From Escherichia coli (lineage in GTDB: Bacteria; Pseudomonadota; Gammaproteobacteria; Enterobacterales; Enterobacteriaceae), in assembly GCF_011045215.1 (NCBI RefSeq), contig NZ_CP049201.1: 64,000 nucleotides of DNA, one strand, 5' to 3'. How positions within the stretch are numbered: position 1 is the first letter of the stretch; every line of letters starts with the position of its first letter. Under the pieces are notes generated by a model. It was not told where the DNA came from and ran no database searches. It saw nothing but the letters and a program-made list of their open reading frames with translations. The position numbers were made by a program, and so were the translations under genes. Positions 57,780-57,803 of the stretch are shown in pieces.

Positions 57780-57803
57780 ACTTTAGTTACAACATCCTTA
57801 ATT
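57780..57803 (-). other. TerB replication terminator site (Tus-binding), overlapping tus promoter
   Basis: Minus strand AATTAAGGATGTTGTAACTAAAGT contains the Ter core GTTGTAACTA; 11-34 nt upstream of tus ATG. Confidence 0.75.

Follow-up and report, generated by a model that had tools for sequence, protein, structure and literature searches.

The closest described counterpart of the element reported here is TerB of Escherichia coli K-12, which precedes the tus ATG by 11 bp (PMC8707476) and overlaps the tus promoter (PMC8347550). According to the passages in PMC8707476 and PMC8347550 that cite Roecklein et al. (1991, 1992), Tus autoregulates its own gene through TerB in this promoter. The lock mechanism of Tus-Ter complexes depends on the direction of approach: arrival from position 1 of the site leads to docking of C6, and arrival from position 23 displaces Tus (PMC8707476). 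The weak or missing lock of TerF/H and TerI/J has been attributed to base changes at positions 5 and 9 (PMC8707476). ChIP-seq revealed strong Tus occupancy at TerB, which is used once a fork has passed TerC, i.e. as the back-up of TerC (PMC8707476). The terB site blocks forks, and arrest signals are highest at terC and terB (PMC10331603).

The window, that is the whole stretch of 64 kb that was analysed, represents E. coli core chromosome (rstA, rstB, tus, fumC and fumA and, toward the opposite end, lhr to cfa). In K-12 it corresponds to ~1.68–1.74 Mb, in reverse complement. Upon alignment with MG1655 (NC_000913.3), in which TerB occupies 1,684,226–1,684,248, the site, the spacer and the tus start matched column for column, with the order rstB-TerB-tus-fumC retained and the site on the tus coding strand. 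Read along the minus strand, the locus consists of the rstB stop codon TGA (57847–57845), 42 nt of intergenic sequence, TerB (57802–57780), the 10-nt spacer GGTTAATATT (57770–57779) and the tus ATG (57769–57767); the spacer was invariant in all 10 aligned E. coli sequences (see below). [quoted passage not shown]

The tus gene (56840–57769, minus strand) encodes a DNA replication terminus site-binding protein of 309 amino acids, as assigned with PDB 1ECR/2I06 and TIGR02648. The deduced protein matches crystallised Tus (PDB 1ECR, 2I05, 2I06) over its full length with 307 of 309 residues identical, the exceptions being I23A and E43K, and its score against the NCBIfam equivalog TIGR02648 is 547 bits (cut-off 178). 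The open reading frame listing would start tus at a GTG at 57781, overlapping TerB. The ATG at 57769 is favored instead, as it fits 1ECR end to end and agrees with the RefSeq annotation of the closest genome. An Rfam scan of the window returned one family above its gathering score, the enterobacterial sRNA STnc550 at 4746–5136 (plus strand; 396 bits, full length).

The minus-strand 23-mer ATTAAGGATGTTGTAACTAAAGT at 57780–57802 was identified as TerB by sequence match, by the K-12 alignment and from the literature (PMC8707476, PMC8347550). Position 1 of the site is 57802 and position 23 is 57780, and the non-permissive face is directed toward higher window coordinates, i.e. the rstB side. It agrees with K-12 TerB, AATAAGTATGTTGTAACTAAAGT, at 21 of 23 positions; the mismatches are confined to position 2 (A>T) and position 7 (T>G), and positions 8–23 are the same. 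To count as a Ter site, a sequence had to be 23 bp long and to carry GTTGTAAC(T/G)A, the invariant core, at positions 10–19; the core found here, GTTGTAACTA at 57793–57784 (minus strand), has no mismatch. G6 is kept at 57797 (minus strand); its partner C6 is flipped into Tus when the lock forms (PMC8707476). A5 and T9 are canonical, as in TerA–E and TerG. Counted against the named sites, the 23-mer has 2 mismatches with TerB, 3 with TerA, 4 with TerC and 5–10 with the remaining members of TerA–J. All of its bases have a precedent at the respective position among TerA–J, T2 being present in TerC and TerE, and G7 in TerC, TerG and TerI.

A preceding interpretation (the sequence-only reading) had proposed TerB upstream of tus and had named alignment to TerA–J as a check. 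In that alignment the Ter consensus was matched with core, G6, A5 and T9 intact, and the proposal is upheld by the 21/23 identity, the full core, the orthologous position and the intact tus gene. Its coordinates, 57780–57803 or 11–34 nt upstream of tus, were right at the start and one base too far at the end; the true span is −11 to −33.

When the window was scanned with K-12 TerB allowing up to 3 mismatches, the only match was 57780–57802, with 2 mismatches; at the same threshold, 100 shuffled versions of the window with preserved dinucleotide composition gave no match. The bare 8-mer GTTGTAAC is not significant alone, with 4 occurrences against 1.66 expected and 13 of 100 shuffles reaching 4. 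Weak Ter-like sequences do arise by chance in the window (24491–24513, 37642–37664 and 60649–60671), and the site might in principle be another of these, or a decayed pseudo-Ter that Tus does not bind. Such chance sites, however, carry at least 2 core mismatches, as against none here. Together with the failure of the shuffles to produce a match, the position orthologous to K-12 TerB and a core kept across thousands of genomes, this leaves that explanation with practically no weight. We consider it almost certain that the site is the orthologue of E. coli TerB, partnered with the adjacent tus and predicted to have both barrier and operator roles. The assignment is based on sequence, position, orientation, the intact Tus and the conservation of core, spacer and ATG. 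The feature as such is already known, being E. coli TerB with its tus autoregulation in an ordinary, common natural allele. A textbook element has thus been re-identified in another E. coli strain, which matters little as a finding; TerB is of use as a map anchor from which the chromosomal location of the window and the direction in which the locus is replicated can be read.

The three weak Ter-like sequences deviate from the core as follows. That at 60649–60671 (plus strand), TATGTGAAAGTTGTAACCATTTT, has A9 and C18 and overlaps the start codon of the transporter gene described below; if it were active, its non-permissive side would face the normal fork. Those at 24491–24513 and 37642–37664 (both minus strand), GCTGTGGATTTTGTAACTGACAG and GAGATGTGAGTTGTAATGAATCG, have T10 and G19, and T17 and G18, respectively. 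Their number is within or near chance expectation, and none coincides with a secondary ter site that has been named for this part of the map. The sequence GAGATGTGAGTTGTAATGAATCG at 37642–37664 was considered as terK and rejected, as terK maps at 2.28 Mb (PMC10331603), its sequence differs and the core is mismatched. A search of the 64-kb window for a second strong Ter site gave none.

The sequence-only reading had further placed TerB within the tus promoter and had invoked Tus autoregulation, in line with the literature on K-12 (PMC8707476, PMC8347550). A strict consensus scan of 57600–58000 returned no sigma-70 site, since it demands T as the last base of the −10 hexamer. A relaxed scan found TGGTCA, 17 nt and TGcTATAAA, the last abutting position 1 of TerB. 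The candidate extended −10 element TGcTATAAA occupies 57802–57810 (minus strand), so that its last base would be TerB position 1; the candidate −35 element TGGTCA (4/6) is at 57825–57830 (minus strand), separated from the −10 by the 17-nt spacer. With these elements, all predicted from sequence, transcription of tus would start at about Ter positions 7–9, beneath bound Tus. TerB could then serve as the tus operator, reaching from the last base of the −10 over the predicted start, and bound Tus would exclude RNA polymerase. The outcome of such self-repression would be a Tus level that is kept low and is self-limited. Mohanty, Sahoo and Bastia reportedly observed in 1996 that Tus-Ter blocks RNA polymerase as well, and in a polar manner. 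If this applies, read-through from rstB, which reaches the non-permissive face, would be damped too.

An inverted repeat, GGTGGT-caagtc-ACCACC, is located at 57815–57832 (minus strand) between the rstB stop codon and the tus −10, overlapping the candidate −35. It comprises 6 bp here and 4 bp in K-12, the difference being due to two SNPs that add one pair each. The repeat (GGTGGT-6 nt-ACCACC, 57832–57815) was considered as a terminator of rstB or as a regulatory hairpin; this was rejected, as the 86-nt intergenic RNA does not fold better than its shuffles (z = −0.85) and a T-run is lacking.

The distribution of the allele was determined with a 38-bp probe spanning the −10 region and TerB, built so that a megablast match requires the given allele. 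The exact allele was found in 1,261 of 5,426 complete E. coli genomes (~23%), including O157:H7 and strain 042, and the K-12 version of the probe in 2,360 of the 5,426. A 71-bp probe was at least 99% identical over the aligned stretch in 801 genomes. Ten E. coli sequences, sampled down the match ranking, were aligned. They contained six further versions of the 5' part, namely AATAAGT (K-12), ATTAAGT, AATAAGG, GTTAAGG, ACTTAGG and, with a 1-bp insertion, ATAAAGT. Variation was confined to Ter positions 1–4 and 7 or to this insertion, and positions 8–23, the spacer and the ATG were invariant. Published surveys of terB SNPs agree with this alignment: 1–2 SNPs per 23 bp were found across phylogroups (PMC10331603, Table 2), and the SNPs are located in the outer variable region, the positions of which are argued to add little to binding (PMC8347550).

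In E. coli 7/2, MLI106K3 and EC42405 the 1-bp insertion lies between the −10 region and the Ter core (TATAAAATAAAGTATGTTG…), shifting the promoter by one base relative to TerB. In two of these three strains a different sequence replaces the upstream inverted repeat.

The question arises whether the T2/G7 allele, together with the nearby promoter SNPs, differs functionally from K-12 TerB in Tus affinity, lock half-life or promoter strength, which would lead to another Tus set-point. Position 2 is in or beside the −10 region, where an alternative hexamer of K-12, TAAAAT (5/6), becomes TAAATT (4/6) here; position 7 adjoins C6, and an exchange of T for G might conceivably affect the kinetics of the lock; the inverted repeat upstream has 6 bp instead of the 4 bp in K-12. 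Both bases, however, occur in high-affinity natural Ter sites of the lock-forming class, T2 and G7 in TerC and G7 in TerG (PMC8707476), and ~23% of complete E. coli genomes, including that of O157:H7, have the allele. Moreover, outer positions are argued to add little to binding (PMC8347550), and the intergenic fold does not exceed that of shuffles (z = −0.85). We therefore regard a functional difference as improbable; the T2/G7 allele would be expected to act like the K-12 allele.

In K-12, dif maps at 1,590,750, TerC at 1,609,157 and TerB at 1,684,226, so that 75.0 kb separate TerB from TerC and 93.5 kb separate it from dif. In the 64-kb window dif was not found, and no reversal of GC skew was detected across it. 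The plus strand of 1–57779 contains more G than C (skew +0.021), with a cumulative skew that climbs from 0 to 0.63 throughout. A G-rich plus strand in this segment identifies it as the leading strand of a fork that travels toward higher coordinates; since Ter is on the minus strand, such a fork meets the permissive end (position 23) first. The polarity is therefore that of TerB: the permissive face is directed toward the usual fork, and the site, located beyond TerC and dif, bounds the trap on its right-hand side, as judged from skew and K-12 synteny. Only the last 6 kb of the window (57803–64000) are inside the fork trap; ~58 kb (~90%) are outside, on the permissive, origin-proximal side. The sequence-only reading had put the window at the replication terminus. 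This holds for the terminus region, of which the window contains the right-hand fork-trap edge, but not for the zone of fork fusion, given that there is neither dif nor a skew switch and that ~90% of the sequence is outside the trap.

The closest complete genome, NZ_OZ197100.1, contains a TerC-like site, TTATGGGATGTTGTAACTAATAT (6436–6458 of the piece), with 2 outer-region differences from K-12 TerC. In this genome the TerC-like site is 101 kb from TerB (75 kb in K-12), with a lambdoid prophage between the two.

Tus binding, fork arrest and autoregulation are described for K-12 TerB and would apply here on account of the near-identity of the two sites. Tus is expected to bind the 23-bp TerB as a monomer and to form a polar replication-fork barrier. 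DnaB arriving from the position-1 side, i.e. from rstB, would melt the G6/C6 pair, whereupon C6 would flip into a pocket of Tus and lock the complex. The fork blocked in this way would be the one corresponding to the clockwise fork of K-12 after it has already passed dif and TerC. The normal fork, coming from the tus side, would meet the permissive face and displace Tus. According to the literature forks get to TerB only upon failure of TerC, and use of the barrier is probably occasional.

This raises the alternative that the site is mainly an operator, which chiefly autoregulates tus and rarely or never acts as a fork barrier since clockwise forks are caught by TerC. TerB is indeed not the innermost site, TerC being 75 kb nearer to dif in K-12 and the TerC-like site of the closest complete genome being 101 kb inward, and an invariant spacer and ATG beside the core fit selection on gene regulation. 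On the other hand, substantial fork pausing at terB in wild-type cells is reported where PMC10331603 and PMC8707476 cite 2D-gel studies, and all features of the lock (G6, A5, T9 and the core) are kept in the site. The two roles are not mutually exclusive either. An operator devoid of a significant barrier function seems unlikely, if still worth considering, and we favor a site that combines both roles.

Between rstA and rstB the window contains a low-GC insert of 1,750 bp (59147–60896, minus strand) with the ORF of a divergent SDF-family transporter at 59325–60668, which is part of the context and not of TerB. Relative to K-12, these 1,750 bp stand in place of the 7 bp ATAAGCG. Their GC content is 42%, compared with 51% in the flanking genes. 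The transporter has 447 amino acids and belongs to the SDF/DAACS family (PF00375), with scores that fall well short of the GltP, DctA and SstT model cut-offs. The insert is separated from TerB by 1,344 bp, confirming the earlier statement that less than 2 kb lie between it and a Tus/Ter trap, and is on the non-permissive side, just inside the fork trap. It is present on the chromosome of 1 of 5,426 complete E. coli genomes. An identical transporter protein is encoded on at least 20 public contigs, and the gene order rstA-SDF-rstB-tus-fumC was seen in the three contigs shown that are long enough to carry the neighbours.

Inspection of the insert junctions gave no flanking direct or inverted repeats, native E. 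coli sequence reaching up to both edges, and a search of the window for IS1 ends or remnants gave none. A stretch of 1,655 bp of the insert (99.3% identical) is found on 12 conjugative plasmids, e.g. the IncK2/Z plasmid pBOKZ_020007. In this plasmid (NZ_CP025625.1, 4969–6660), the one examined, the segment is located between two inverted IS1 copies, and one of the IS1 junctions falls after the same base (…GCGGGCGATGCCA, 59147) as the edge of the chromosomal insert next to the rstB ATG. On the rstA side, the chromosome has 93 bp (60804–60896) that are absent from the plasmid copy. The boundary shared by the plasmid IS1 junction and the insert suggests IS1-linked mobility. The insert with its IS1-flanked plasmid copies is a more interesting object than TerB.

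The insertion alters its surroundings. The C-terminus of RstA is changed from …PHAWE* in K-12 to …PHAWDSDNK* (60881–60900). The genes rstB and rstA, 3 bp apart in K-12 and presumably translationally coupled there, are separated by 1.75 kb, and rstB has a new upstream sequence (59144–59160). On a contig of SRR8502391 an identical transporter in the same rstA-SDF-rstB-tus context is accompanied by another TerB allele, ACTTAGGATGTTGTAACTAAAGT (6867–6889 of the contig), and by another SNP at the rstB stop. Genomes with the insert thus have two or more TerB alleles at a distance of no more than 1.4 kb from it, which implies that this short stretch has undergone recombination or recurrent mutation.

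Chi, GCTGGTGG, occurs 11 times in the window against 1.9 expected, as is usual for E. coli. The sole Chi beyond TerB is at 62837–62844 (minus strand), ~5 kb away, in the orientation readable by RecBCD entering at a fork arrested at TerB.

It is conceivable that fork stalling and recombination at Tus-TerB promoted the acquisition of the insert 1.35 kb away. The insert is on the non-permissive side, where arrested forks and entry of RecBCD are expected, and the Chi at 62837–62844 has the orientation needed by RecBCD that enters at TerB; PMC10331603, citing Horiuchi et al. (1994), mentions increased recombination in the area of termination. The clean replacement of 7 bp by 1,750 bp with no flanking repeats is, however, unlike what homologous recombination leaves behind. 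A nearly identical segment is carried by 12 conjugative plasmids and is surrounded by inverted IS1 in pBOKZ_020007, pointing to IS1- or plasmid-linked mobility; the boundary shared with the plasmid IS1 junction makes the idea of Ter-related recombination unnecessary, though it stays compatible with it. With 1 of 5,426 complete chromosomes, the insert moreover represents a single event and gives no basis for a rate. We thus consider a contribution of Tus-TerB to its acquisition very unlikely. Hardly any credence can be given to the broader speculation that the T2/G7 allele and the SNPs lengthening the inverted repeat over the −35 might set another Tus level or barrier strength, so that lineages would differ in the leakiness of their fork traps and stalling could favor rearrangements like the insertion between rstA and rstB.

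In comparison with known systems, the site is closest to K-12 TerB, with which it shares the locus, the strand relative to tus, the 10-nt spacer and positions 1, 3–6 and 8–23, the respective Tus proteins being 99.4% identical. It differs from it by A2T, T7G and, further upstream between rstB and tus, three intergenic SNPs. TerC and TerG resemble the site in having G7, the core and G6 and in blocking the same fork direction (PMC8707476), TerC sharing T2 in addition. They are unlike it in that they occupy other loci, differ at positions 21–23 and are not coupled to the tus promoter; furthermore, TerC is the innermost barrier, whereas TerB is the back-up.

Type I fork traps, such as those of Edwardsiella tarda (Ter1), Dickeya and Proteus (PMC8707476), have a Ter directly upstream of tus that is both barrier and operator, the arrangement proposed here. 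In type I the tus-vicinal Ter is innermost, whereas here, as in the type II traps of K-12 and Salmonella, there is an additional inner TerC, as seen in the closest genome. A more distant, functional analogy exists with RTP/Ter of Bacillus subtilis, likewise a polar barrier in which a terminator protein acts at terminus sites near its own gene (overview in PMC13220808). The protein and its DNA sites are unrelated to Tus and Ter, and RTP binds as dimers.
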